This document shows, one piece after another, positions 1-60,585 of a stretch of 64,000 bases of DNA. The notes beneath the pieces are model-generated. The model was not told the DNA's origin. It made no database searches and worked only from the letters and a program-made list of their open reading frames with translations. This DNA is from Minisyncoccota bacterium (GTDB taxonomy: Bacteria; Patescibacteriota; Minisyncoccia; Phycocordibacterales; PALSA-1337). The DNA lies in the NCBI GenBank assembly GCA_041663145.1, contig JBAZRG010000002.1:22384-86383 (forward strand), given 5' to 3'. The stretch's first letter is position 1, and every line of letters starts with the position of its first letter. The translations under genes and the position numbers were made by a program.

Positions 1-270
1 TGTTGCACTACTGAATTTATTACTTTCAAGTCAAACATATATTTAGTTGTTATTGATTTTTTATTAAGTTGTGACTATATCTATTGTATCTCATGGTCAA
101 TATATCATCTAGATATAATATATCATGCGATACCCTCTAAACTAAAATGTCCGCCGGTAGGCGAACTTCTCTAGACATGATGTAGTATACACTATTTTTT
201 GCGTTTGTAAAGTATCTAGCTATTCACCAAGCTCAATAAGTCCAATACCTTTGAATCATTACGTGGTGTG

Positions 271-300
271 TTGACAAGTAGCTATTATGTGCTGTATAAT
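271..300 (+). promoter_or_regulatory. sigma70-like promoter for the DGR target gene: TTGACA (271-276), 18-nt spacer, TATAAT (295-300)
   Basis: Perfect consensus -35 and -10 hexamers read directly in the sequence, about 135 nt upstream of the likely ATG at 437. Confidence 0.5.
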
Positions 301-436
301 TATTAAGGTAGTTCTTTGATATGCCAGTTACGTTCACCATAACAGAAAGCGTCTCAAAACTGAGGCATTTTCCGTTGTGGTGAACTGTAGTAACCACACA
401 TCAACAAAACAACGTATACGAAAGGTAATAACGATT

Positions 437-1123
437 ATGAAATCGATTACACCTGGTCAGATGGAACAGTTTGCTCGTTTTGTGACAGATGCTTCCGGTC
501 CAAGCACGAAGACGGCTCTTGAGCAGCTTCGCGACGACTGGGAATTCAGTCATGAAGGTCTTCAGCGCGCGCTCGGAAAAGGTAATCAGCTCAAATCCCG
601 CCTTATTCCGCTTCTCAAGGCCATGATCAAGGAAATGGCGACTAATATCCAAGGATGCGTGAAGCGCATCCTTGATGGAGAAGAGATCGCCATCGCCAAA
701 ACGAGCGGAAAGGAAAATCTCGCCCATGCCAAGGACGTTTTCACCGGTTGGGTTGATCCCGACTTCGTGAATTACGGCTGTGATGTGGAAGGGGAGCCTA
801 CCGCTCCGACACCTGTAGAGGTGTTCGAGATGGTGGAAAACGGCGACTTCGCGCGGATATTCGGTGGTTTCAATGTCAGCCTCGATCAGCTGCGTCTTTC
901 ACAGCACCAGATCAAGGCTTTCGCAAGGGATCACCGTGATAAGCTCCGCACGGAAGGATACGGGACCTTCTTCCTGTTCAAGGTTGGCGAAGAGTTCTTC
1001 GTTGCGTACGTGCACTTCTACGGCGGCGGGCGGCTCCGGGTCTACGTGCACCGCTTCTCGGACGTCAACGTCTGGGGCGCCGAGCGCCGTCATCGCGTCG
1101 TGCTCCCGAAACTGAACCAGTAG
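437..1123 (+). CDS. DGR target protein; the C-terminal about 40 aa are encoded by the variable repeat
   Basis: ORF 377..1123; the likely true start is the ATG at 437 (MKSITPGQ), which has an upstream AAGG. The gene is GC-richer than its surroundings. Its 3' 119 bp is an adenine-mismatch copy of the downstream template repeat. The fold is not recognisable from sequence; DGR targets are usually C-type-lectin-like. Confidence 0.7.
   Translation: MKSITPGQMEQFARFVTDASGPSTKTALEQLRDDWEFSHEGLQRALGKGNQLKSRLIPLLKAMIKEMATNIQGCVKRILDGEEIAIAKTSGKENLAHAKDVFTGWVDPDFVNYGCDVEGEPTAPTPVEVFEMVENGDFARIFGGFNVSLDQLRLSQHQIKAFARDHRDKLRTEGYGTFFLFKVGEEFFVAYVHFYGGGRLRVYVHRFSDVNVWGAERRHRVVLPKLNQ
996..1114 (+). repeat. 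DGR variable repeat (VR)
   Basis: 119 nt aligned without gaps to 1482-1600. There are 18 mismatches, every one at a position where the TR has A (VR has T, C or G). There are no mismatches at TR C, G or T positions. Confidence 0.9.
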
Positions 1124-1481
1124 GTTCACCTACTGGGTGGCACTTGCAAATTAGCCTTGAGCCTTTGGCTCTCAGTCCCTCTGATCCTTGTCAAAATTTA
1201 TTTTGGCAAATCAGGGGGATTTTTTGATTGAGCACAATCACCTACTGGGTTATACTGGAATGGCACGCATGAACGTACGGTGGCTATGGCTCCTGTGCCA
1301 CGCTTGTGAAGAAATACGTTCGGGAGTTCTGCTGGATATGTCTTGCAGAAGAGTGGATGTATTATTATCTAAACAAAAAATAATCAGTTGGTGTAGCGAA
1401 CTGGAGGACTTCAAGGTCCCGAATACTATTCAATTTGTCCTGATTGGGCGGGTGGTGTACTGGATGGTCCGCTACACATTA

Positions 1482-1600
1482 TCTTCGTTGCGAACGTGAA
1501 CTTCAACGACGACGGGCAGCTCAAGGTCAACGTGAACCGCTTCTCGAACGACAACGTCTGGAACGCCGAGAACCGTCATCGCATCGTGATCCCGAAACTG
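1482..1600 (+). repeat. DGR template repeat (TR)
   Basis: Invariant partner of the VR. Read in the VR frame it is rich in AAC codons (aac ttc aac gac gac ... aac gtg aac ... aac gac aac ... aac gcc gag aac), the classic DGR design that allows diversification without stop codons. The six-frame ORF 1496..1765 is this TR read in frame and is not a gene. Confidence 0.9.
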
Positions 1601-1615
1601 CAATTTCTCTCATCA

Positions 1616-1984
1616 TTATTTGGTGAGAGTTTTGTTGAGTGTCGATTTAGCAGACGGACTTTGAAGGCCTTTGCGCCATCCACCAAGCATCCGTCCTATT
1701 TCTTCGAGCTTTTCCGAGAGTTCTGTATATTTGTCAGTCGGCATGAGCTTGCTCTCCCATGCTAGTTGATAAAAGAATTTAAGAGTATCTACCTTCGTTA
1801 TTGTTCGACCAAGCATTACCGTTTTGGTTTCTGGTGGTAGATATATGCAAGAAAAACTAAATTCCAAAGTATCTAAGAATAAATCCTCGATCTTTTGCCC
1901 GATGCCGAGTCGTTCGACCCTCGGAAAGTTCCTATGAATAGTTAACCAAAACTGATATGCTTCTTTTTCCTTTAAAATTACCAC
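1616..1984 (-). CDS. avd: DGR accessory variability determinant (Avd), a four-helix-bundle protein
   Basis: 122 aa. The C-terminal ...LSEKLEEIGRMLGGWRKGLQ matches the Avd-type EVGRILGSWI ending, and the N-terminal EAYQFWLTIHRNFPRVERLG matches the Avd/23S-IVS-protein helix 1. It lies between the TR and the RT, but on the opposite strand. Confidence 0.7.
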   Translation of the reverse strand: MVILKEKEAYQFWLTIHRNFPRVERLGIGQKIEDLFLDTLEFSFSCIYLPPETKTVMLGRTITKVDTLKFFYQLAWESKLMPTDKYTELSEKLEEIGRMLGGWRKGLQSPSAKSTLNKTLTK

Positions 1985-2024
1985 TGGAGAATTGCGGGGG
2001 GGGGGTCGTTATAGTCATTTTATT

Positions 2025-3021
2025 TATGAAAAATAATGGGGTTTCGTACAACCATATCATATCTCTTAAAAATATCCACGAAGCGTGGCGCGAATTTGTC
2101 TCGGGCAAAAAATACAAAAAAGATGTCGCTGAATTTCTGCTCAGACTTTCGGAGAATACATATAAACTCCACACTGATCTGAAAAATAAAATATATGTTC
2201 ATGGACCGTACGAAGCGTTTGCTGTTAATGATCCAAAACCGCGCAGCATCCATAAAGCAAGCGTGCGGGACCGCTTACTCCACCACGCCCTCTATCGACA
2301 ACTCTACCCGTACTTTGATCAGAAGTTTATTCATGATTCCTATTCTTGCCGTGATTTTAAGGGAACACATCGGGCATTGGACCGTTTTATGCAATTTGCC
2401 CGCAAGGTTTCGAAGAGCAATAAACGCACCTGCTGGGTGTTGAAATGTGACATACGCAAATTCTTTGCTTCAGTTGACCATTCAGTCCTCATGGCAATAC
2501 TTAAAAAGCATGTCTCTGATTCTGATATTATCCGCCTTGTTGGTGGGGTAGTGGAGAGTTTTAAAAGTACTGGTCCAGGAAAGGGATTGCCGCTCGGTAA
2601 TCTCACGTCACAACTCCTTGTAAATGTTTATATGAATGAGTTTGACCAATATGTAAAGCATGTCCTCAAACAGGAGTTCTATATCCGTTACGCTGATGAT
2701 TTTGTGATTATGCATCACGATCGCAAGGCTTTGCTCGAGGTATTGCCGAAGATTGAAACCTTTCTTGAATCAATTCTTAAACTACAGCTTCATCCTGATA
2801 AGGTTTCTATCGAGACAGTTTCATCCGGTGTTGATTTTCTTGGTTGGGTGCATTTTCCGACTCATCGTGTACTTAGGACAAAGACAAAGAAGAGAATGTT
2901 TACAAGAATTGAAGATTCACAAGGAAAGGAAGAAGTAGTATGTTCATATCTCGGTATGTTAAAGCATGGGAATTGCAAAAAATTGAAGTGCAGGGTCATG
3001 AAATTGACAATCACAATCTAA
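2025..3021 (+). CDS. DGR reverse transcriptase
   Basis: RT motifs are present: RSIHKASVRDRLLHHAL (motifs 1-2), the DGR-specific GLPLGNLTSQLLVNVYMNEFD (motif 4 I/LGNxxSQ), and YADD in YIRYADDFVIMH (motif 5). The size of about 330 aa is typical of a DGR RT. The start is taken at ATG 2025 (MKNNGVSYNHI...); the six-frame ORF extends upstream to 1957. Confidence 0.9.
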
Positions 3022-3030
3022 TTTATCGTA

Positions 3031-3185
3031 GGAGCTTGGTGAATATTGTGTATTTGCTCCTCGCAATGCGATTTGAACCCCGAACAAATTGCCCATATTA
3101 GAGTAGCTCCGTCTACTCTAATATGGTTGCAATTTGGAGTGGGTGACCTTGCGAGGAGCAAATACACAATATTCACCAAGCTCCT
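3031..3185. repeat. Element A copy 1: a 36-bp outer inverted repeat enclosing a conserved ~85-nt core with an internal 14-bp hairpin
   Basis: The arm 3031-3066 (ggagcttggtgaatattgtgtatttgctcctcgcaa) is the reverse complement of 3150-3185. The core tgcgatttgaaccccgaacaaattgcccatattagagtagctccgtctactctaatatggttgcaatttggagtgggtgacc is nearly identical to the core at 44100-44190. Confidence 0.7.
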
Positions 3186-3237
3186 GTAGACTCTATGCAC
3201 AGTGACTCGCGCTTGAATTAGCGATACAATTGACTCA

Positions 3238-4986
3238 ATGTTCGTCGAAGATGCCCAGCTCTATAAATTCATACTCGACTCCGGATTGGTGACAAAGGAG
3301 GAGCTTGAGGATGCAAAAAAAGAGAGTGAAAAAACTAATAAAAGACTTGGCGATATTTTGGTTAGTGCCGGCAAGATAAATGCCGACAATCTACGTCGCA
3401 TGCAAGCATATGTTCTCGGTATTCCTTTTGTCGATCTGAAAAACAAAAAGATCCCTTTTGAAACTCTGTCACAAATACCGGAACCGATCGCGAGAGGGCA
3501 CAATATCGTGGCTTTCAAAAAGACCGAGGTTTCTCTCGAGGTCGCCATGCTCGACGTCAACGATCTTTCGGCTATCGATTTTATAAAGAAAAAAGTAAAT
3601 CTCAAGATATTACCTCGTCTCACAGATACTGATTCGATCAAGGAGGTTCTCGTTCAATACCAAAAAAGCTTGAAGGCCGAGTTCGGAGATATCATCCAAA
3701 AAGAAACCGCGACGATGAATATGATCTCGGAAGAAAGCGGTGAAGCTATATCCGAAGCTGATTTGAAAAAGATCGCCGAAGATCTGCCGGTAGTTCGCAT
3801 TGTCGATACCTTGATTAAACATGCAATATTGCAAAATGCTTCAGATATCCATATAGAGCCGATGGAGGAACAGGTATTGGTGAGATATCGCATAGACGGC
3901 TTGTTGCACGATGCCATGGTCCTTCCAAAACAGGCAGGTCCTTCGGTCACTGCCCGTATAAAGGTCTTGTCGAATTTGAAACTTGATGAAAAACGTTTGC
4001 CACAAGACGGTCGTTTCAAAGTAGATATAAATAATGAGAAAGTTTCTTTTCGTGTATCGATATTGCCGACTTATTACGGGGAAAAGACCGTTATGCGTCT
4101 GTTACGAGAGAGCATTTCTGGTTTTACTCTAGAATATCTGACATTTCACGGTGAGAGTCTCGAACGTATTCACAAAGCACTTACAAAATCCACAGGCATG
4201 ATCCTCACAACCGGTCCTACTGGATCCGGAAAGACGACGACTCTATATACGATGCTCGACATATTGAACACTCCTGATGTAAATATTTCGACTATTGAAG
4301 ATCCTATCGAATATCAGATGGCTAGAATAAATCAGACTCAGGTCAAACCAGAGATCGGTTTCTCTTTTGCTCAAGGCATACGCACACTCGTTCGTCAGGA
4401 TCCGGATATTATCATGGTTGGTGAGATCCGAGACAATGAAACAGCCGCTTTGGCGGTGAATGCCGCTTTGACTGGCCACTTGGTTTTGTCGACACTCCAC
4501 ACAAATTCCGCCGCCGGTGCTATACCACGACTTTTGGATATGAAAGTAGAATCATTTTTGCTCGTATCTATACTAGACATCGTGATCGGTCAGCGACTGG
4601 TGCGCAGACTGACTGAAGCCAAATCACAATACAAATTGACCAAGGATGAACTGGCTGAGCTAGGTCGTCTGGTGGATTTGGAACGAGTCCTTGAAACTTT
4701 GAAGGCTGAAAAAATAGTAAAACCTAGCGATTCGTGGGAGAAGATATCTTTTTGGAAACCTGTACCGGGTGGAGATGATGATGGGTTCAAGGGTCGCATC
4801 GGTATTCACGAAGTATTGAAGATGACTCCTTCCATGAAGGATCTCATAATGAAAGATGCTAGTTCGGACGGTCTAGAAGCACAAGCTAGAAAAGAGGGAA
4901 TGTTGACCATGTTAGAAGATGGGATATTCAAATGCGTTCAAGGTTTGACGACTATTGAGGAAGTTCTTCGAGTTATTTCGGAATAA
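3238..4986 (+). CDS. pilB: Type IV pilus assembly / type II secretion ATPase (PilB/GspE family)
   Basis: 582 aa with Walker A GPTGSGKTTTLY. The GspE-family N-terminal domain and the C-terminal Zn-finger region are consistent with this family. Confidence 0.85.
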   Translation: MFVEDAQLYKFILDSGLVTKEELEDAKKESEKTNKRLGDILVSAGKINADNLRRMQAYVLGIPFVDLKNKKIPFETLSQIPEPIARGHNIVAFKKTEVSLEVAMLDVNDLSAIDFIKKKVNLKILPRLTDTDSIKEVLVQYQKSLKAEFGDIIQKETATMNMISEESGEAISEADLKKIAEDLPVVRIVDTLIKHAILQNASDIHIEPMEEQVLVRYRIDGLLHDAMVLPKQAGPSVTARIKVLSNLKLDEKRLPQDGRFKVDINNEKVSFRVSILPTYYGEKTVMRLLRESISGFTLEYLTFHGESLERIHKALTKSTGMILTTGPTGSGKTTTLYTMLDILNTPDVNISTIEDPIEYQMARINQTQVKPEIGFSFAQGIRTLVRQDPDIIMVGEIRDNETAALAVNAALTGHLVLSTLHTNSAAGAIPRLLDMKVESFLLVSILDIVIGQRLVRRLTEAKSQYKLTKDELAELGRLVDLERVLETLKAEKIVKPSDSWEKISFWKPVPGGDDDGFKGRIGIHEVLKMTPSMKDLIMKDASSDGLEAQARKEGMLTMLEDGIFKCVQGLTTIEEVLRVISE

Positions 4987-5020
4987 TATTTTTCTTTTTA
5001 AATAATCATTACACAACGTC

Positions 5021-6241
5021 ATGCCTCATTTCACTTTCAAAGCAAAAAGACCTTCGGGCGAGATTTATAGCTCGGAAAAAGACGTGAATGATCGATACGA
5101 ACTGTATAAATTGCTTCGTGAGACCGGTGATGAAGTCGTTGAATTTAAAGAAAAGAAATCAAGAGGGGGTATAAATATGGAAATATCATTGGGACGTATT
5201 ACGGACCATGTCAAAACTATTGAAAAGATAAACTTTGCCCGCAATCTAGGCTCGATGTTGCAGGCCGGACTTTCGCTATCCCGTGCTTTGCAGGTCTTGG
5301 AGCGACAGACTCGAAACAAAAAATTCAAAAAAATCTTGGCTCAATTGATCGACGAGATCGATAAAGGTACAACATTTTCTGACGCTTTAGCTAAACATCC
5401 ACGAGTATTTCCTCAATTATTCGTCTCTATGGTCAATTCGGGAGAACAATCTGGCACATTATCCGAATCACTCAGAGTTGTCGCAACTCAAATGGACAGC
5501 AGTTATTCACTAGAGAAGCGTGTCCGTGGTGCACTCATGTATCCGGCGGTCATTGTGACGGCTATGGTTGGCATTGCGATTTTGATGTTCATATTCGTAG
5601 TACCGACTTTGATGAAGACATTTACGGATCTCAATGTTGAATTGCCGTTTGCGACACGTCTGGTGCTCGGTATATCAAATATAATTCAAAATCAAGGTTT
5701 TTTGGTTCTGATCATAATACTTATTATCACATCCGGATTGTACTGGTGGACGCGAAAATCAACAGGTCAAAAAATATTGCACCGTATTTTGTTGAAGTTA
5801 CCGGTGATAGGCGAACTTGTTCAAGAGGTTAATACTGCCAGAACCGCTCGCACCATGTCATCACTGCTAACTTCTGGTGTCGATGTTGTAGAATCGGTAA
5901 CAATAACATCGGCTGTCGTCCAAAATGTTCATTTTCGAAGAGTATTGGTTGAAGTTGCTGAATCTATAAAGAAAGGTGAATCGATGTCCAAGGTTTTTTC
6001 GGAAAATATCAATCTTTACCCCGTATTCTTCTCTGAAATGATAAATGTTGGAGAAGAGACTGGAAAAACAGGGGAGATGCTCTTGGGAGTGGCACATTAT
6101 TACGAAGATGATGTATCCCAAAGAACCAAAGACATGTCTACCATCATTGAACCGATACTGATATTAATGATCGGAGCGGCTGTAGGAGTGTTCGCTCTGT
6201 CGATGATTCAGCCAATGTATTCATTGGTAAATGTTATCTGA
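5021..6241 (+). CDS. pilC: Type IV pilus inner-membrane platform protein (PilC/GspF family)
   Basis: 406 aa polytopic membrane protein with duplicated GspF-type domains. It lies directly downstream of pilB. Confidence 0.8.
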   Translation: MPHFTFKAKRPSGEIYSSEKDVNDRYELYKLLRETGDEVVEFKEKKSRGGINMEISLGRITDHVKTIEKINFARNLGSMLQAGLSLSRALQVLERQTRNKKFKKILAQLIDEIDKGTTFSDALAKHPRVFPQLFVSMVNSGEQSGTLSESLRVVATQMDSSYSLEKRVRGALMYPAVIVTAMVGIAILMFIFVVPTLMKTFTDLNVELPFATRLVLGISNIIQNQGFLVLIIILIITSGLYWWTRKSTGQKILHRILLKLPVIGELVQEVNTARTARTMSSLLTSGVDVVESVTITSAVVQNVHFRRVLVEVAESIKKGESMSKVFSENINLYPVFFSEMINVGEETGKTGEMLLGVAHYYEDDVSQRTKDMSTIIEPILILMIGAAVGVFALSMIQPMYSLVNVI

Positions 6242-8019
6242 TGGAATCCAATACAATGCATCCAAAAAAATCCAACGGTTTTTCTCTGGTGGAAGTTCTG
6301 GTGGGAACAGCTATTTTCCTGATAGTTGCAATATCAGCATATGGGATCTTTGCCAATGTTTTTCGCTTGGCTAATGGCAATCAGGCCAGAATGTTGGCTA
6401 TACAGTTGGCAGATGAACAATTTGAGATCGTTAGAAACATGCCATATCTATCAGTTGGTTTGACCAACGGTATTCCGCTCGGAATTTTGCCACAAAATCA
6501 GACTCTAGTACGCGGTAACGTGACATTTGATGTCGGCATGACTATTCGTAATGTCAATTTCTCCACGACAAGCTATCAGGCCAGTAGTAAATTGGTTGAA
6601 ATCACCGTAACATGCTCAACATGTCAAAATTTCAATCCGGTTACTTTAACAGGGCAAATATCTCCAGCAAATCTTCAATCAGCTGGAGATGGGGGGGCGA
6701 TAGTGGTTCAGGTTTTTGATGCCAATGGTCAGCCAGTCGTCGGTGCCGAGGTGGTTATTCAAAGTGTATCTACATCCACCATTACAAATACAGATGTTAC
6801 GAATAATAACGGTATTCTAAATGTTATCGGAGTGCCACCTGGAAATAATGCTTATAGAATAACTGTAAGCAAAGCTGGTTATTCGACGGAGCGAACATAT
6901 TCGATCGGAGGTGCAGGCAATCCAAACCCGATAAAACCGGATGCGACGGTGCTCAATCAACAGGTTACGCAAGTCAGTTTTGCAATAGATAAATTGAGCA
7001 CATTACATTTTTCCAGTGTCGGACCATTATGCAACGTTATTCCAAACGTGGAGTTTAATCTGTCTGGCGCAAAGCAAATCGGTGCGGATATTCCCAAATA
7101 TTCAGAAGCTTTGTCAACTGATACAAATGGCACATTGACTTTGAATTCCATGGAATGGGATACATATACACTTTTACCGACTGAAGCATCATATGATATT
7201 TACGGTATCAATCCTATTAGTCCATTTGCTCTAAATCCTGACAATATACAGGAAGTTCAATTGGTCGGTATTCCTTCCTCAGGTAATAGTCTCATGGTTA
7301 CGGTCGTAGACAGTGCCCTTCAATTGCCTATATCTGGAGTCGAAGTAAATCTTTCAAAAACTGGATATGATGTTACAAAGATCACTGGTCAAGGTTATAT
7401 GAATCAGACTGATTGGTCAGCTGGAAGTGGGCAGATCTTATTTACTGATCCGACCAAATATTATTCTGATAATGGTCTAGTCGATACGTCAACATCGACT
7501 GGAGATATATTGTTGGATCAGGCTTTTGGTCTATATAATATAAATTCCACAGGCACACTAGAATCTTCCACTTTTGATACAGGTACGACAAGTAATTTTT
7601 ATACATTTTCTTGGAATCCTTCCAGTCAGCCATCTTTAGCTGGAGTGGAAAGCGTGAAATTCCAATTTGCTTCAAATGACACATCGACTTCTACTAGTTG
7701 GGACTATAAAGGTCCAGATGGTACATCGAGCTCATTCTTTACCGTACCGGGTTCATCTATAAATAATAATCAGAACGGTAAACAATTCGTCAGATACAAA
7801 GCTTATTTATCGACTGAGGTGGCAACAGTGACGCCAATGGTCTCTGATGTATCGTTTGCATATACTTCTGGTTGTATACCACCTGGACAGGTATTATTCC
7901 AGAATCTTTCTGGTACATATACTTTGACTGTCGAAAAAGCTGGATATATCACAGTGAGTGGCAGTATAGATATCGGTTCTGATTGGCAACAAAAAAAGGT
8001 TTTACTTGAATTACAATGA
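6241..8019 (+). CDS. Large pilin/pseudopilin-like protein with a prepilin-type N-terminal cleavage/methylation signal
   Basis: The N-terminus ...KSNGFSLVEVLVGTAIFLIV fits G|F-S-L-V-E with Glu at +5. It has a long Ser/Thr/Asn-rich extracellular region and is translationally coupled to pilC. Confidence 0.7.
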   Translation: MESNTMHPKKSNGFSLVEVLVGTAIFLIVAISAYGIFANVFRLANGNQARMLAIQLADEQFEIVRNMPYLSVGLTNGIPLGILPQNQTLVRGNVTFDVGMTIRNVNFSTTSYQASSKLVEITVTCSTCQNFNPVTLTGQISPANLQSAGDGGAIVVQVFDANGQPVVGAEVVIQSVSTSTITNTDVTNNNGILNVIGVPPGNNAYRITVSKAGYSTERTYSIGGAGNPNPIKPDATVLNQQVTQVSFAIDKLSTLHFSSVGPLCNVIPNVEFNLSGAKQIGADIPKYSEALSTDTNGTLTLNSMEWDTYTLLPTEASYDIYGINPISPFALNPDNIQEVQLVGIPSSGNSLMVTVVDSALQLPISGVEVNLSKTGYDVTKITGQGYMNQTDWSAGSGQILFTDPTKYYSDNGLVDTSTSTGDILLDQAFGLYNINSTGTLESSTFDTGTTSNFYTFSWNPSSQPSLAGVESVKFQFASNDTSTSTSWDYKGPDGTSSSFFTVPGSSINNNQNGKQFVRYKAYLSTEVATVTPMVSDVSFAYTSGCIPPGQVLFQNLSGTYTLTVEKAGYITVSGSIDIGSDWQQKKVLLELQ

Positions 8020-8627: not shown

Positions 8628-10156
8628 TTAAAAGATTTTTTGAGTGGAATAAGAAGCGAAACTCAAATCAAAATAGGGGAGATATTTTGGTTACCTCGTT
8701 GGTTTTTGGTGCAATCGCCCTTATGGTCGTTGTCGGTCTGATAAATTGGGGTGTATATATAATGAAATCTATCAGGGCGACGGTTTCTCGCGAACAAGCA
8801 TTCCAAATAGCCGAAGCTGGTGCTGACTATTATCAATGGCACTTGGCGCAGTATCCGACTGATTATCAGGATGGCACATCTGGCTCTGGTCCATACAGTC
8901 ATGATTTTTTTGATAAAGATGGAAATTTACTAGGTTCATTTCATCTGACTATTACTCCACCTCAGATCGGATCTACTGTGGTCAAGATTGTTTCTGAAGG
9001 CCGAATAGCCTCATCGAGTATTGCTCGTAAGATCGAAAAGACGATGGCGATTCCATCTCTTGCTCGATATGCGGTCGTAGCAAACGACAATATGCGATTT
9101 GGTGAAGGTACAGAGGTATTTGGTCCGATCCAATCAAACGGCGGTATTCGTTTCGACGGTGTCGCACACAATCTCGTATCGAGTGCCATGAGTACCTATA
9201 GAGATCCGGATACTGGCCAGACGGAGTGGGGAGTGTATACAAATGTTGGAACGGATGACCCAACTCCGCCAACAGCACTTCCAAATCGCTCCGATATCTT
9301 TATAGCCGGTCGCCAAGTCGGAGTGCCAAGAACAGACTTTGTCGGGCTTACGGCCGGTCTCACAAATCTACAAACTTTGGCACGTGCAGGAGGTAAAGAA
9401 TGGACATCTTCTGGTAGTAAGGGATATCACATAATTTTGAGAACCGATGGAAAATACGATATATATAAAGTAAATTCTTTACAAGCTTCACCTAACAGCA
9501 CTTGTTCAGATGGTGGTGATTCACAAGTGCAATGGGGAACATGGAGTATAAAAAATAAAAATCCGAATGATAGCAATCAGCCGAATCAAACTTATATAGG
9601 TAGATATAATTTTCCGACTAACGGCGTGATATTCGTAAATGATCATGTTTGGATCGATGGACAAATCGACAGTGCTCGTTTAACTGTAGTTGCGGGTCTT
9701 ATAGGCAATACTGATCCGACCAAGAATGCCAATATCACAATAAATAGCGATCTTATATATAGTAGTTATGATGGTACAAATTCTGTTGGTTTGGTAGCAC
9801 AAGGCAATATCAACGTCGGATTGGTTTCGGAAGATGATATTCGTATCGATGCTGCATTGGTAGCTGAGAAAGGCCGTGTTGGCAGATTTTTCTATAATTC
9901 CAGTTGTTCTATAAGTGGTACTGCATATTGGCATCGTGATTCTCTGACTTTATATGGAATGATAGCAACATATGTCCGTTATGGTTTCGCCTATACAGGA
10001 AACAGTTTCAATTGCGGAGGTTCTATAGGTAGTACAGGTAGTGGATATTGCATCCGAGATATTACTTACGATGCAAACCTATTGTATGCACCACCTCCTT
10101 CATTTCCACAGGCCACAACGCAATACCAAGTGATATCGTGGCGTGAAATCAAATAG
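8624..10156 (+). CDS. Pilus-associated protein (PilX-like; hydrophobic N-terminal anchor without the canonical Glu+5)
   Basis: 510 aa. The N-terminus has a TM helix (ILVTSLVFGAIALMVVVGLINW). It is translationally coupled to the pilin genes. Confidence 0.5.
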   Translation: MIKRFFEWNKKRNSNQNRGDILVTSLVFGAIALMVVVGLINWGVYIMKSIRATVSREQAFQIAEAGADYYQWHLAQYPTDYQDGTSGSGPYSHDFFDKDGNLLGSFHLTITPPQIGSTVVKIVSEGRIASSSIARKIEKTMAIPSLARYAVVANDNMRFGEGTEVFGPIQSNGGIRFDGVAHNLVSSAMSTYRDPDTGQTEWGVYTNVGTDDPTPPTALPNRSDIFIAGRQVGVPRTDFVGLTAGLTNLQTLARAGGKEWTSSGSKGYHIILRTDGKYDIYKVNSLQASPNSTCSDGGDSQVQWGTWSIKNKNPNDSNQPNQTYIGRYNFPTNGVIFVNDHVWIDGQIDSARLTVVAGLIGNTDPTKNANITINSDLIYSSYDGTNSVGLVAQGNINVGLVSEDDIRIDAALVAEKGRVGRFFYNSSCSISGTAYWHRDSLTLYGMIATYVRYGFAYTGNSFNCGGSIGSTGSGYCIRDITYDANLLYAPPPSFPQATTQYQVISWREIK

Positions 10157-10170
10157 TCTGACCTCACATA

Positions 10171-10959
10171 ATGGGGTACAATATAAGCCATATGAAAAAT
10201 AGAAGATTAGTGGTTGGAAATTGGAAGATGAATCCGACGACGGAAGAAGAAGCAAAAGAAATTGCCAGAAAAGTCCGTCGTACAGTTTCTGGTCTCGGAT
10301 CTATCGAGACTGTTTTGTGTCCGCCGTATATTTTTGTCTCGGCGGTTCGTCCCAGTGTCAAAGTCCCTCATTTTCACGTTGGCGCACAATCGGTTTCGTT
10401 TTTGGAGGGGGGTTCTCATACAGGAGAAGTCGGTGCTCAAATGCTCAAAGATTCGGGAGTCGAATATGTTATAGTCGGTCACTCAGAAATGAGGGCAATA
10501 GGTGATACGGATGAGATTGTTTCAAAGAAGATCGCCGCTGTATTGGAGGCGGATCTGAGTCCAATAGTCTGTTTTGGAGAAAAAATCCGTGATGAGAGTG
10601 GTTCCCACTTCAATTTTCTTAAGGAACAGATGAAAAATACCCTAGTTAACATACCAAAATCAAAAAGTTCAAAGATAATTATCGCCTACGAACCGATTTG
10701 GGCTATTGGCGCCGCGGAAGCGATGAAACCGGAAGAAATATATGAGATGTCTATTTTTATTAAAAAAATATTCTCTGATATATTCAGTATAAATCTGGCC
10801 CATAAGATCGATGTGCTTTATGGTGGAGCTGTTACATACAAAAATGCTTTTGATATTGTGAAGACTGGTCAGATAGACGGTCTCTTGGTTGGCAGAGAAA
10901 GTGTAAATGTAACTGGTTTTGTGGAATTATTAAAAGTAGTCGATAGTGTTCCTGTATAA
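10171..10959 (+). CDS. tpiA: Triosephosphate isomerase
   Basis: TIM hallmarks are VVGNWKMN, GAQ..TGE..., VGHSE.R and IAYEPIWAIG. Confidence 0.9.
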   Translation: MGYNISHMKNRRLVVGNWKMNPTTEEEAKEIARKVRRTVSGLGSIETVLCPPYIFVSAVRPSVKVPHFHVGAQSVSFLEGGSHTGEVGAQMLKDSGVEYVIVGHSEMRAIGDTDEIVSKKIAAVLEADLSPIVCFGEKIRDESGSHFNFLKEQMKNTLVNIPKSKSSKIIIAYEPIWAIGAAEAMKPEEIYEMSIFIKKIFSDIFSINLAHKIDVLYGGAVTYKNAFDIVKTGQIDGLLVGRESVNVTGFVELLKVVDSVPV

Positions 10960-13944: not shown

Positions 13945-14673
13945 ATGAATCCAGCTTCAAACATCACTATATTTACCGATGGATCCTCACGTGGCAATCC
14001 TGGTCCTGGGGGATGGGGTGCCATTATCGTAGATAAAAAAGAAGATCAAAATAAATCTCACATTCGAGAGATTGGAGGCTCGGAGAAAAATACGACGAAT
14101 AATAGAATGGAATTAACTGCAGTTTTACGTGCCATTGGAAGTACGGCAAATGAAACAGTCAGTACAGTTTATACAGATTCCTCGTATGTCATAAATGGAA
14201 TAACCAAGTGGATCCATGGCTGGAAAAGAAATGGTTGGCAGACAAAAGCCAAAGAAGATGTCCTGAATAAAGATCTATGGGAAGAATTGGATAGAAATAT
14301 AAATAATAAAAAAATATCTTGGAAATATGTCGGGGGACATGTCGGTATTGCTGGAAATGAACGTTGTGATCTAATAGCGACCGGTTTCGCCGATGGTATC
14401 AAAGTCGATCTGTATGACGGCCCTTTGACTGGATATAAGGATAAAAATATTCTGAATATATCACTCGATCATACTAAAGCCACAGATAAAAAATCCAAGT
14501 CCAATCGTTCCAAAGCCAAAGCTTATTCATATATAAGTAGCATAAACGGTAAGATTGAAATCCATAAAAGTTGGCCGGAATGTGAAAAGAGAGTTAAGGG
14601 TGCAAGAGGAGCTAGATATAAAAAGGCATTGAGTCCACTAGAGGAGGCTGAAATTGTTGATGAATTTAAATAA
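13945..14673 (+). CDS. rnhA: Ribonuclease HI with a C-terminal basic extension
   Basis: Motifs TDGSSRGNPGPGGWGAII, NNRMELTAV and YTDSSYVINGITKWIHGWKRNGW are present. Confidence 0.85.
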   Translation: MNPASNITIFTDGSSRGNPGPGGWGAIIVDKKEDQNKSHIREIGGSEKNTTNNRMELTAVLRAIGSTANETVSTVYTDSSYVINGITKWIHGWKRNGWQTKAKEDVLNKDLWEELDRNINNKKISWKYVGGHVGIAGNERCDLIATGFADGIKVDLYDGPLTGYKDKNILNISLDHTKATDKKSKSNRSKAKAYSYISSINGKIEIHKSWPECEKRVKGARGARYKKALSPLEEAEIVDEFK

Positions 14674-14782
14674 CCAAAGAACCTCCCAGAAATAACTTCC
14701 CTCCCGTCTCCTGCGGGCGCTAATCGCTGGCTACCCATCCTCGGAGCACGGGAGGGAAGTTATTTCTGGGAGGTTCTTTGGT
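14672..14782. repeat. Element B copy 1: a 36-bp perfect inverted repeat enclosing a conserved 39-nt loop (cctgcgggcgct...atcctcgg)
   Basis: The arm 14672-14707 (aaccaaagaacctcccagaaataacttccctcccgt) is the reverse complement of 14747-14782. It overlaps the rnhA stop codon. Confidence 0.75.
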
Positions 14783-14836
14783 TAATTTAGACTTTCTTAA
14801 TCAGGATTTTAAGTTCCGCTTCTATAATGAACTCTC

Positions 14837-28361: not shown

Positions 28362-28372
28362 TAGAACCGTAA

Positions 28373-28472
28373 ACCCCACGCGACATAACAACATCCCTCC
28401 GTACACCTGCGGGCGCTTACGCTAAGCACAATCCTCGGTGTACGGAGGGATGTTGTTATGTCGCGTGGGGTT
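28373..28472. repeat. Element B copy 2: a 34-bp perfect inverted repeat enclosing a conserved loop (cctgcgggcgcttacgctaagcacaatcctcgg)
   Basis: 28373-28406 is the reverse complement of 28439-28472. The loop shares cctgcgggcgct and atcctcgg with copy 1. It lies immediately after the fusA stop. Confidence 0.75.
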
Positions 28473-43819: not shown

Positions 43820-43858
43820 ATTCGCTCTGATTTGAATAGATTTATAACGTAACCCCCC

Positions 43859-44007
43859 TTGCATCCTCGTTTTTCATCCTCGAACTCTACTCACAATATA
43901 CCAACATTTTCACAAAGGATGCGTTACAAGGATTCGCGCATCCTTTGGAAAATGTATTGGTATATTGTTTCGCAGATTATTCTCGGAAGAAAAACGAGGA
44001 TGCAAGG
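43859..44007. repeat. Nested palindromic structure: an 18-bp perfect outer inverted repeat enclosing a ~70-nt imperfect hairpin
   Basis: cttgcatcctcgtttttc at 43859-43876 is the reverse complement of 43990-44007. The inner acaatataccaacattttcacaaaggatgcg pairs with cgcatcctttggaaaatgtattggtatattgt. Confidence 0.6.
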
Positions 44008-44068
44008 AGTGTTACGTAAAATCTTCATATTCACGTCCATGACTACTTTTGTAAAATTTCAGCTCCTC

Positions 44069-44220
44069 GAGCTCGGTGAATATTGTTCGGAAACGACTCG
44101 CAATGCGATTTGAACCCCGAACAAATTGCCCATATCTGAGTAGTTCCATCTACTCAAATATGGATGCAATTTGGAGTGGGTGACCTTGCGTGTCGTTTCC
44201 GAACAATGTTCACCGAGCTC
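44069..44220. repeat. Element A copy 2 (outer 35-bp inverted repeat plus conserved core)
   Basis: gagctcggtgaatattgttcggaaacgactcgcaa (44069-44103) is the reverse complement of 44186-44220. The core at 44104-44185 matches the 3067-3149 core at most positions. The variable stem segment differs from copy 1 but stays self-complementary. Confidence 0.75.
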
Positions 44221-44297: not shown

Positions 44298-44648
44298 ATG
44301 TCAAGATCACTCAAGAAAGGTCCATATGTCGACGAAAATCTTATCAAAAAGATTTCGGGTAAAAAGCCGGCTCAAACTGGTACTATAAAAACATGGGCAC
44401 GTCGTTCTCAAATCTCACCTGAAATGGTGGGCTTTACTTTTGGTGTTCACAATGGACGCAATCATCTAGATGTATTTGTAACCGAGGACATGGTAGGACA
44501 CCGCCTCGGTGAATTTTCGCCTACAAAGAAATTCATCCGACATGGAGGTAAGATGCAAAAGGAGATCGAACTCAAGGCTAAAGAAGCAGAGATGGCCGCA
44601 GCCAAATCCGCCAAGGAAGCCGCTACAACAGCAGCTACAAAGAAATAA
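44298..44648 (+). CDS. rpsS: 30S ribosomal protein S19 with a Lys/Ala-rich C-terminal extension
   Basis: [15 protein letters not shown]..., [12 protein letters not shown]..., HRLGEF. Confidence 0.95.
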
Positions 44649-55042: not shown

Positions 55043-55216
55043 AATCGCTTTTGAATAACAGGCACTAACAGAATGTTCCCAGAACAATCCGAGTATGCGA
55101 TTGAGCTTCGAAAAATTACCCGTGTTTGGTGAAGCCCTGGAACCAAACACGGTTGTAATTTGAGAAGCGATTACGCAGGATTGTGGCGGGAACATTCTGT
55201 TAGTGCCTGTTATGAT
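55043..55216. repeat. Complex interleaved inverted-repeat structure downstream of ndk (pseudoknot-like or alternative stems)
   Basis: Pair A: cgtgcgtaatcgcttt (55043-55058) with gaagcgattacgcagg (55165-55180). Pair B: tgaataacaggcactaacagaatgttccc (~55060-55090) with gggaacattctgttagtgcctgttatga (~55188-55216). There is an inner hairpin cgtgtttggt...ccaaacacgg. Confidence 0.55.
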
Positions 55217-60195: not shown

Positions 60196-60557
60196 GGGGA
60201 TGATCGGCATAGACAGTCTATGGTCTCCGTTCGTGCGGCGTGAGCACCGTTAACTCATAAATCTGACGGAAACTCTAAATGCTAAATCAACCGTTTCTCC
60301 GTATTTCGGAGCAAAGGACTTTAGTTTCGCTCTTGCTTAAAGAGCGCGTTCACCTCAGGGTATCCTAACCTGAGAATGGGCGTCATTATCTGGATGTAGG
60401 GCAGTGAAGTTTCTCGCTTCATTGTCTGAAATCATGAGATCGTGAATACGTGTTTTGTCTTCTTTCGAGCGTATTCATTAAACTTCAAAGAATTCTACCG
60501 CCGTAGAATCGTTCGGTTGATCTTGATTGCACCTGGGTTCGATTCCCAGCATCTCCA
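60196..60557 (+). ncRNA. ssrA: tmRNA (SsrA); the 3' CCA is not encoded
   Basis: The 5' GGGGAUGAUCGGCAUAGAC pairs with the 3' CAUCUCC plus the discriminator A. The T-arm is CUGGGUUCGAUUCCCAG (60531-60549). The internal tag reading frame is ...GCA AAG GAC TTT AGT TTC GCT CTT GCT TAA, giving ...AKDFSFALA*. It is adjacent to smpB. Confidence 0.8.
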
Positions 60558-60585
60558 CAAAAATAAGAAGCGTAGCGACTATATT

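Follow-up and report, generated by a model that had tools for sequence, protein, structure and literature searches.

The window analysed here comprises 64,000 nt of DNA from a Minisyncoccota bacterium (GenBank assembly GCA_041663145.1, contig JBAZRG010000002.1, positions 22,384–86,383 of the forward strand), and it carries a diversity-generating retroelement (DGR) between nusA and pilB near its left end. The promoter of the DGR target gene (TTGACA-18-TATAAT, 271–300, plus strand) has its −35 box at 271, which is also the left limit of homology with related cassettes. It is followed by the target gene (437–1123, plus strand), which contains the variable repeat (VR, 996–1114), by the template repeat (TR, 1482–1600, plus strand), by an avd gene of the bAvd family on the opposite strand (1616–1984, minus strand), and by the reverse transcriptase (RT) gene (2026–3021, plus strand), whose stop lies 10 nt before the terminus of a hairpin element that we call Element A. 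The DGR is genuine, because every TR/VR difference in the 119-nt repeat falls on a TR adenine, and it is intact and apparently active. Target, Avd and RT are the only coding content of the interval 235–3183.

The leader of the target gene contains a 25-bp imperfect hairpin (332–385) that is conserved in four of four cassettes, the others being at L051 (~4320–4375), L052 and L053 (L numbers denote the fetched loci used for comparison). The hairpin has changed in a compensated manner, with GTTCACC...GGTGAAC in the window corresponding to CTTCGCC...GGCGAAG in L051, and a terminator-like stem lies at 351–366; the leader may be regulatory. Between the divergent starts of avd and the RT gene there is a run of ten G residues (1996–2005), present as nine to ten G in all four cassettes, which could be slippage-prone or could be part of a promoter or a spacer RNA.

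To the left of the cassette, nusA reads on the minus strand from a start near position 36, placed by alignment with relatives. Its predicted promoter (TTTACA-16-TATACT) occupies 184–211 on the minus strand, and its leader contains a terminator-like hairpin (149–166, minus strand) that is conserved in relatives. This hairpin, GTTCGCC-loop-GGCGGAC with a T-run, lies downstream of the predicted promoter and recurs with different loops in L003 (~9064–9081), L001 (~5822–5838) and L009 (5180–5197); it looks like a transcription attenuator of nusA. To the right, the predicted pilB promoter (3202–3230, plus strand) is found just downstream of Element A and is followed by pilB (3238–4986). TACAAT-type −10 boxes stand ~7–11 nt upstream of the ATG of pilB and of tpiA (window 3224–3240 and 10158–10173; also L001, L003, L008, L009 and L012), and these short distances suggest leaderless or near-leaderless mRNAs. 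A tmRNA gene lies farther along the window (60196–60560; 108 bits in Rfam) and encodes the tag peptide AKSTVSPYFGAKDFSFALA.

Element A copy 1 (A1, 3030–3185) is a foldback with perfect 37-bp arms (3030–3066 and 3149–3185) around a structured core of ~80 nt (82 nt). Its termini read GAGCTTGGTGAATA at 3032–3045 and TATTCACCAAGCTC at 3170–3183, and each strand has a folding energy of about −103 kcal/mol (z-scores −16 to −17). Copy 2 (A2, 44069–44220), whose termini are the same, is located between an ABC-type permease gene and rpsS. The A2 core is 94% identical to that of A1 and the outermost 18 nt are common to both copies; the mid-stems are wholly different, yet each is fully complementary, so that the changes are compensated. 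A1 is flanked by an offset duplication of GTAG (tcGTAG before the element and ctGTAG after it), which is only 4 nt long and is matched in ~6% of controls; if it is a degenerate target duplication, it weakly favours an independent insertion of A1. There is no target duplication at A2.

A long hairpin at 55055–55213 has an Element A-type core without the GAGCT termini. This core (AATTGCAACC-hairpin-GGGCAATT...AATCGCAT) recurs there and in L015 (5030–5180) and L031 (7745–7895), in each case with quite different outer stems. In an alignment of five core sequences, pairing is kept through two-sided changes in 35 of the 60 pairs. It is possible that the core forms an independent module, as an RNA or as a protein-binding structure. 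The compensated changes include G-U pairs on one strand, a hint that selection may act on the elements at the RNA level. A search with a 21-mer of the core gave no match in genome contigs, none in viral contigs and two in metagenome contigs, both of which were dismissed as evidently accidental; the A-type core is rare, and the widespread part of the element is its termini only. Rfam 15 gave no family at or above its gathering score for Element A or for the region of the 14-mer discussed below; the only match there was to a generic long-hairpin microRNA model, which scored 47 bits where 144 are required. At 44505 a 10-mer also matches, within the rpsS coding sequence, and was dismissed as chance.

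The window contains further long hairpins. Those at 14668–14787 and 28372–28472 have perfect stems of 36–40 bp, lie directly past stop codons and share the loop motif CCTGCGGGCGCT...CGCT...ATCCTCGG on unrelated stems, forming a second hairpin family with no Rfam match. Another, with 38-bp arms (43847–44017), is found immediately upstream of A2, likewise between the ABC-type permease gene and rpsS, and the ribosomal protein cluster begins after these two stacked hairpin elements.

The sequence TATTCACCAAGCTC occurs exactly at 221–234 and at 3170–3183 in the 64-kb window, both on the plus strand, as its reverse complement at 3032–3045, and with one mismatch at 44069–44082. The sequence-only reading of this stretch had pointed to the 14-nt identity between 221–234 and A1; the match is exact, but the position given for it in A1 (3171–3184) was off by one and should be 3170–3183. 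That reading had proposed extending the alignment around 221–234, and when this was done with strict and relaxed local alignment the match proved to be exactly 14 nt with nothing beyond; gapped or relaxed extension against Element A gave nothing either. The 160 nt to the left scored no better against A1 and A2 than shuffles did, a partner arm, an element body and a hairpin were sought in 60–245 and none was found, and no target duplication of a presumed lost element is recognisable at 221–234. What lies at 221–234 is hence an orphan terminal inverted repeat, without partner arm or body, between the nusA and DGR promoters. It is in right-end orientation on the plus strand, its outer terminus (234) facing the DGR. 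It comprises positions 1–14 of the family terminus described below, which is the entire conserved part, its match ends exactly at the outer boundary of the element, and it has the variants of the A1 terminus, with T at family positions 6 and 13.

The sequence-only reading had further argued that a 14-nt match is unlikely by chance in 64 kb. For this particular 14-mer that is so: ~5e-4 matches are expected on both strands of 64 kb, as estimated from base composition (GC 0.41), and 100 shuffles gave 0 matches. By itself, however, the argument is weak, as any piece of any noticed repeat could have matched, and the estimate for any Element A 14-mer matching elsewhere in the window is ~0.1–0.15. 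The possibility that the 14-mer is a common genomic word fell away, since, across the window and the 13 loci fetched first (11 being pilB-relative loci, ~150 kb), exact copies of the 12-mer GAGCTYGGTGAA are confined to element termini and 223–234. We conclude that 221–234 is very probably a genuine copy of an Element A arm end. Family interiors are unrelated beyond position ~16, so that the absence of similarity to A1 past the 14 nt does not speak against homology, and the orphan may derive from another member of the family. The sequence to the left of 221 is ancestral DNA and not decayed element body, because the nusA promoter and leader hairpin there are also present in relatives. A truncated end is found elsewhere too, at L050, where a 22-nt left end without a right end (3662–3683) abuts a full copy. 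As only 14 nt are common, descent from a common ancestor would not be provable from the sequence alone. The orphan end is probably a relic without function.

The family to which these termini belong was delineated by a paired-terminus scan of 185,579 species genomes with the pattern GAGCTYGGTGAA-N(70-130)-TTCACCRAGCT. The scan gave 37 loci, of which ~25 are AT-rich intergenic hairpin elements in Saccharibacteria, Paceibacteria, Parcubacteria, Kaiser-, Taylor-, Staskawicz-, Andersen-, Lipton- and Spechtbacteria. The members have their termini in common and are always strongly hairpin-forming, with mutually unrelated cores. About 12 scan matches are coincidences in high-GC coding sequence (Phycisphaerales, Hyalangium, Hydrogenophaga and others) and were set aside. 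One match, in the actinomycete Winkia neuii DSM 8576 (L029, 4560–4880), falls in a different array of tandem and inverted repeats with GAGCTTGGTGA(G/A)T units and was left unassigned; the array may be distantly related to the terminus or match it by coincidence. Saccharibacteria have Actinomycetaceae as hosts. Several family cores (L035 ~1990–2030, L038, L045, L050 3690–3770 and L022 6795–6880) contain hairpins of the GTCATTCCCGCGCAGGCGGGAATCC type or the GTCATTGCGAGGAGC...GAAGCAATC type, which may resemble the ATTCCC-N8-GGGAAT repeats of other bacteria.

The terminal inverted repeat of the family is GAGCTYGGTGAAWA(WY), 14–16 bp long. The scan pattern demanded GAGCTYGGTGAA and left position 14 free, yet 48 of 50 ends have A there; positions 13, 15 and 16 are biased, and conservation fades past 16–17. 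Unrelated sequences abut the ends, and exact direct target duplications of 5–9 bp (mode 7) flank 10 of the 25 elements, for example ATTGATT, ATTTCAC, TGGTTTC, CGAGTAC, CGTAGAA and TTTTCCAAT; duplications of at least 6 bp occurred in none of 107 displaced-flank controls. The elements are 110–152 nt long, and 16 of 24 overlap no ORF of at least 120 aa, the remainder overlapping only maximal-ORF extensions. Eight genome assemblies hold two loci each, and the window holds two copies and the orphan end. Furthermore, a filled and an empty site can be compared. L009, with 88% PilB identity, has a 111-nt hairpin with ends GAGCTCGGTGAACAATGT...ACATTGTTCACCGAGCT and a different core (also in L010, L011 and L018), which lies between a pilus-operon gene and tpiA, and the orthologous junction is empty in the window, L003, L002 and L012.

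The family thus consists of small non-coding elements with shared terminal inverted repeats, target-site duplications, multiple copies and presence/absence at orthologous sites. Because these features are the operational definition of MITEs (miniature inverted-repeat transposable elements), we file Element A as MITE-like: it is a member of a MITE-like family of non-autonomous transposable elements. MITEs are non-autonomous derivatives of DDE transposons, and the terminal repeats and target duplications, the only features on which this point is based, would fit DDE-type transposition in trans. We found no long-range terminus pairs of the kind an autonomous element would have in the fetched loci, and none of the six minus-strand window ORFs that we checked encodes a transposase. 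The family is not assignable to a named insertion-sequence family from its terminus and duplication length; to our knowledge, a GAGCTYGGTGAAWA terminus with a ~7-bp duplication matches no family that can be named. The searchable literature holds no mention of the terminus, of this family or of MITEs in CPR bacteria, and the family appears to be undescribed.

With the ends identified, the geometry of the locus can be read. From the terminus at 234 to the cassette promoter there are 36 nt, and 10 nt separate the RT stop at 3021 from the terminus at 3032. The bracketing of the DGR by Element A sequences, as it had been proposed, is thus real; the flanking at 36 and 10 nt is somewhat tighter than random insertion scatter predicts. 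The orphan is a right end with its outer terminus toward the DGR, and the left end of A1 faces the DGR likewise. Both termini face the DGR, and the DGR is therefore flanking DNA between two elements and not cargo. A transposase pairing the two DGR-facing ends would mobilise everything but the DGR. The repeats at 221–234 and 3170–3183 are direct and not inverted, and upstream of 221 there is no left-end sequence of the kind a compound transposon would need; inverted copies with outward-facing ends around the cargo are not what we find here.

Homologous cassettes provide a second line of comparison. Cassettes built like that of the window occur at three other loci, with RT homologues of 90, 81 and 70% identity (for Avd 96, 92 and 82%): between a peptidase S51 gene and an unknown gene (L051, 4237–7011), between the argS region and ileS (L052, ~4300–6993), and between secY and adk (L053, 4237–7005; also L054). 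With nusA/pilB in the window (271–3021), the same compact layout of promoter, structured leader, ~230-aa target, TR, opposite-strand avd and RT is seen at four different housekeeping loci in related CPR genomes, and no mobility gene or boundary repeat is recognisable in the cassettes at any of the four. Nucleotide homology with the window sets in at the −35 box (271, or in the case of L051 294) and tapers off over the last ~50–115 nt of the RT gene (~2906–2973). Neither the terminal motif nor an Element A-like hairpin is found beside the cassettes of L051, L052 and L053/L054. A one-mismatch occurrence of GAGCTTGTTGAA at L051 4128–4139 does not continue as a terminus and was dismissed. We also rejected the 14-mer and Element A as intrinsic parts of the DGR (IMH, VR hairpin or TR-spacer RNA), as they are unconserved and cassette homology covers ~271–2970 only. 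Conversely, no DGR RT, Avd or target is found at the 37 motif-bearing loci, ~25 of which are real elements.

The nusA–pilB gap itself varies. Relatives with 88–90% PilB identity have either a different single gene or five unrelated genes there, and the nearest relative, with 91% PilB identity, is represented by a contig that stops 46 nt upstream of pilB. The comparison with relatives that had been suggested did not support a delimitation of the DGR by Element A: their nusA–pilB gaps hold other cargo, and the homologous cassettes at the three other loci have neither motif nor hairpin. The cargo differs per relative (L001 5771–6789, L003 8978–10000, L009 4967–10000, L012 8380–10000) and consists of single unknown genes of 198–244 aa or of five genes, including Bro-N and serpin homologues; the motif is absent from the borders of the variable cargo in L001, L003 and L012. 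L009 has a diverged full family copy ~80 nt upstream of nusA, without a DGR. This copy is on the nusA side of the leader hairpin and is hence not positionally equivalent to 221–234, but its presence indicates that the variable nusA–pilB zone receives such insertions.

Taken as a whole, the explanation we favour, and consider likely, is that Element A is a MITE-like element, that 221–234 is an orphan end, and that the DGR lies between elements and was not delivered by them. It draws on the family with its termini, target duplications, copy number and filled and empty sites, on the orientation of the ends, and on the absence of the motif at homologous cassettes. Element A would belong to a non-autonomous MITE-like family with the terminus GAGCTYGGTGAAWA(WY) and a target-site duplication of ~7 bp, spread through CPR/Patescibacteria. 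The 14-mer at 221–234 would most likely be what a second family member, or a rearrangement involving one, left behind in the nusA–pilB hotspot; such an end may have arisen by truncation, long palindromes presumably being prone to partial deletion. The DGR cassette, from the promoter at 271 to the RT stop at 3021, would then sit between a relic and the intact A1 without being transposon cargo, and the bracketing would reflect small mobile elements accumulating in a permissive intergenic zone, not a vehicle of the DGR.

The sequence-only reading had suggested instead that the DGR was delivered or is bounded by Element A. In a scheme of delivery two copies would have acted as a compound or pseudo-compound transposon (IS26-type, by cointegrate) or as portable recombination homology, and the left copy would later have been cut down to its inner 14 nt. 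The closeness of the termini to the conserved cassette limits (36 and 10 nt) speaks for this, as do the evident mobility of a cassette type found in four different housekeeping contexts and the A1-specific T at family positions 6 and 13 of the orphan; transposons are reported to adjoin DGRs in CPR bacteria, and MITE-like sequences to occur at DGR loci (bioRxiv 10.1101/2023.09.22.558884). Against it, the outer left end that would be needed is missing and the existing end faces the wrong way for cargo, three homologous cassettes have no termini or hairpins alongside, no other element locus holds a DGR, and family members are self-contained insertions with their own target duplications, as A1 may be, in a zone that is an insertion hotspot. 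Delivery by the elements is therefore unlikely in our judgement. The related proposition that the orphan end and A1 are the remains of a MITE-based vehicle (pseudo-compound or cointegrate, or recombination at the 14-bp termini) that moved the cassette into the nusA–pilB hotspot is, if anything, slightly less likely; were it true, the CPR-wide hairpin family with its common 14-bp end would offer sites at which DGRs, and perhaps other cargo, dock as they move from one housekeeping locus to another in these reduced genomes. A site-specific cassette would resemble this locus in another way: if Element A were attC-like, a circle of DGR plus Element A recombining within the 14-mer would leave a right-end fragment upstream and a full site downstream. 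The short direct right-end repeat, the cargo and the complete hairpin do mimic an integrated integron cassette, the conserved ends, variable structure-keeping centres and lengths of 110–152 nt recall attC sites as generally known, and deletion of 235–3183 leaves a plausible nusA–pilB divergent promoter region of ~250 nt. However, there is no integrase here, the family members are solitary and free of cargo with variable duplications of 5–9 bp, which is a signature of transposition, the termini are unlike the attC core sites RYYYAAC/GTTRRRY, and the homologous cassettes lack such a site; despite the 14-bp direct repeats, we do not see a recombinase with core-site repeats at both junctions. We regard this as the most far-fetched of the schemes considered.

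Two further possibilities concern the 14-mer alone. If the match were accidental and historically unrelated to Element A, this would explain why only 14 nt match without extension; the observation is also post hoc, recurring 14-mers are not rare in the window (388 positions, mostly real repeats), and high-GC coding sequences gave ~12 accidental paired matches in the genome-wide scan. Such an accident is nevertheless improbable, given ~5e-4 expected matches and none in 100 shuffles, the coincidence of the match with the conserved family terminus and its stop at the element boundary, the confinement of the exact 12-mer otherwise to element ends in the window and ~150 kb of relative loci, and a full copy with the identical variant 2.8 kb away. 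Alternatively, the 14-mer could be a functional half-site, either an operator for a terminus-binding protein (a transposase or a domesticated one) between divergent promoters or a partner for RNA pairing with the A1 arm. Its place midway between the −35 boxes at 206–211 (minus strand) and 271–276 (plus strand) would suit an operator. However, it lies upstream of both predicted promoters and so in neither transcript, and it has no equivalent upstream of the homologous cassettes or of nusA in L001, L003 and L012; we know of no protein that binds the element termini. This function is very improbable, more so than an accidental match.

On the favoured reading, in which the DGR lies between MITE-like elements, an ambiguous 14-nt match becomes an identified object, the orphan terminal repeat of a mobile element, and the comparisons do not favour delivery of the DGR by Element A. 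The genomes of CPR bacteria are small and are regarded as having little mobile DNA. A MITE-like family of this kind can usefully mark genome plasticity, assembly breaks and insertion hotspots, and its transposase is a defined target for discovery. The compact cassette at four housekeeping loci raises a separate question, namely how the cassettes move.

Among known systems, the closest comparison is with bacterial MITEs such as the Correia elements (CREE) of Neisseria. As generally known, these are likewise non-coding and 100–155 bp in size, with terminal inverted repeats and short target duplications, and they too are multicopy, intergenic near gene ends or promoters, hairpin-forming and polymorphic for filled and empty sites. 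The Element A family differs from Correia in its GAGCTYGGTGAAWA terminus and in a duplication of ~7 bp where Correia has TA. Unlike the MITEs compared, its members have only 14–16 bp ends in common across phylum-level lineages, with unrelated cores, and keep near-perfect pairing over their whole length through compensated changes; no parent insertion sequence was found for them. Integron attC sites share with it conserved short ends, a variable structured centre, a similar length and, at this locus, the upstream direct right-end repeat; in contrast, an integrase and a cassette array are absent here, the ends bear no relation to attC core sites, and variable target duplications surround solitary elements. 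Compound and pseudo-compound transposons (Tn10/Tn5 and IS26-type) are generally similar in placing cargo between two copies of a small mobile element, whereas here the left copy is an inner 14 nt, the mobilising outer end is missing, no outer duplication is shared and other copies of the cargo are unflanked. At the DGR loci of Thiohalocapsa PB-PSB1, MITE-like arrays replace parts of the DGR, and some of them correspond to the ends of insertion sequences that this genome also contains (bioRxiv 10.1101/2023.09.22.558884). The likeness lies in hairpin inverted-repeat elements in or beside DGR loci and in transposable elements that shape the architecture of the locus (bioRxiv 10.1101/2023.09.22.558884); in contrast to Thiohalocapsa, one intact element and one orphan end here lie outside an intact DGR.
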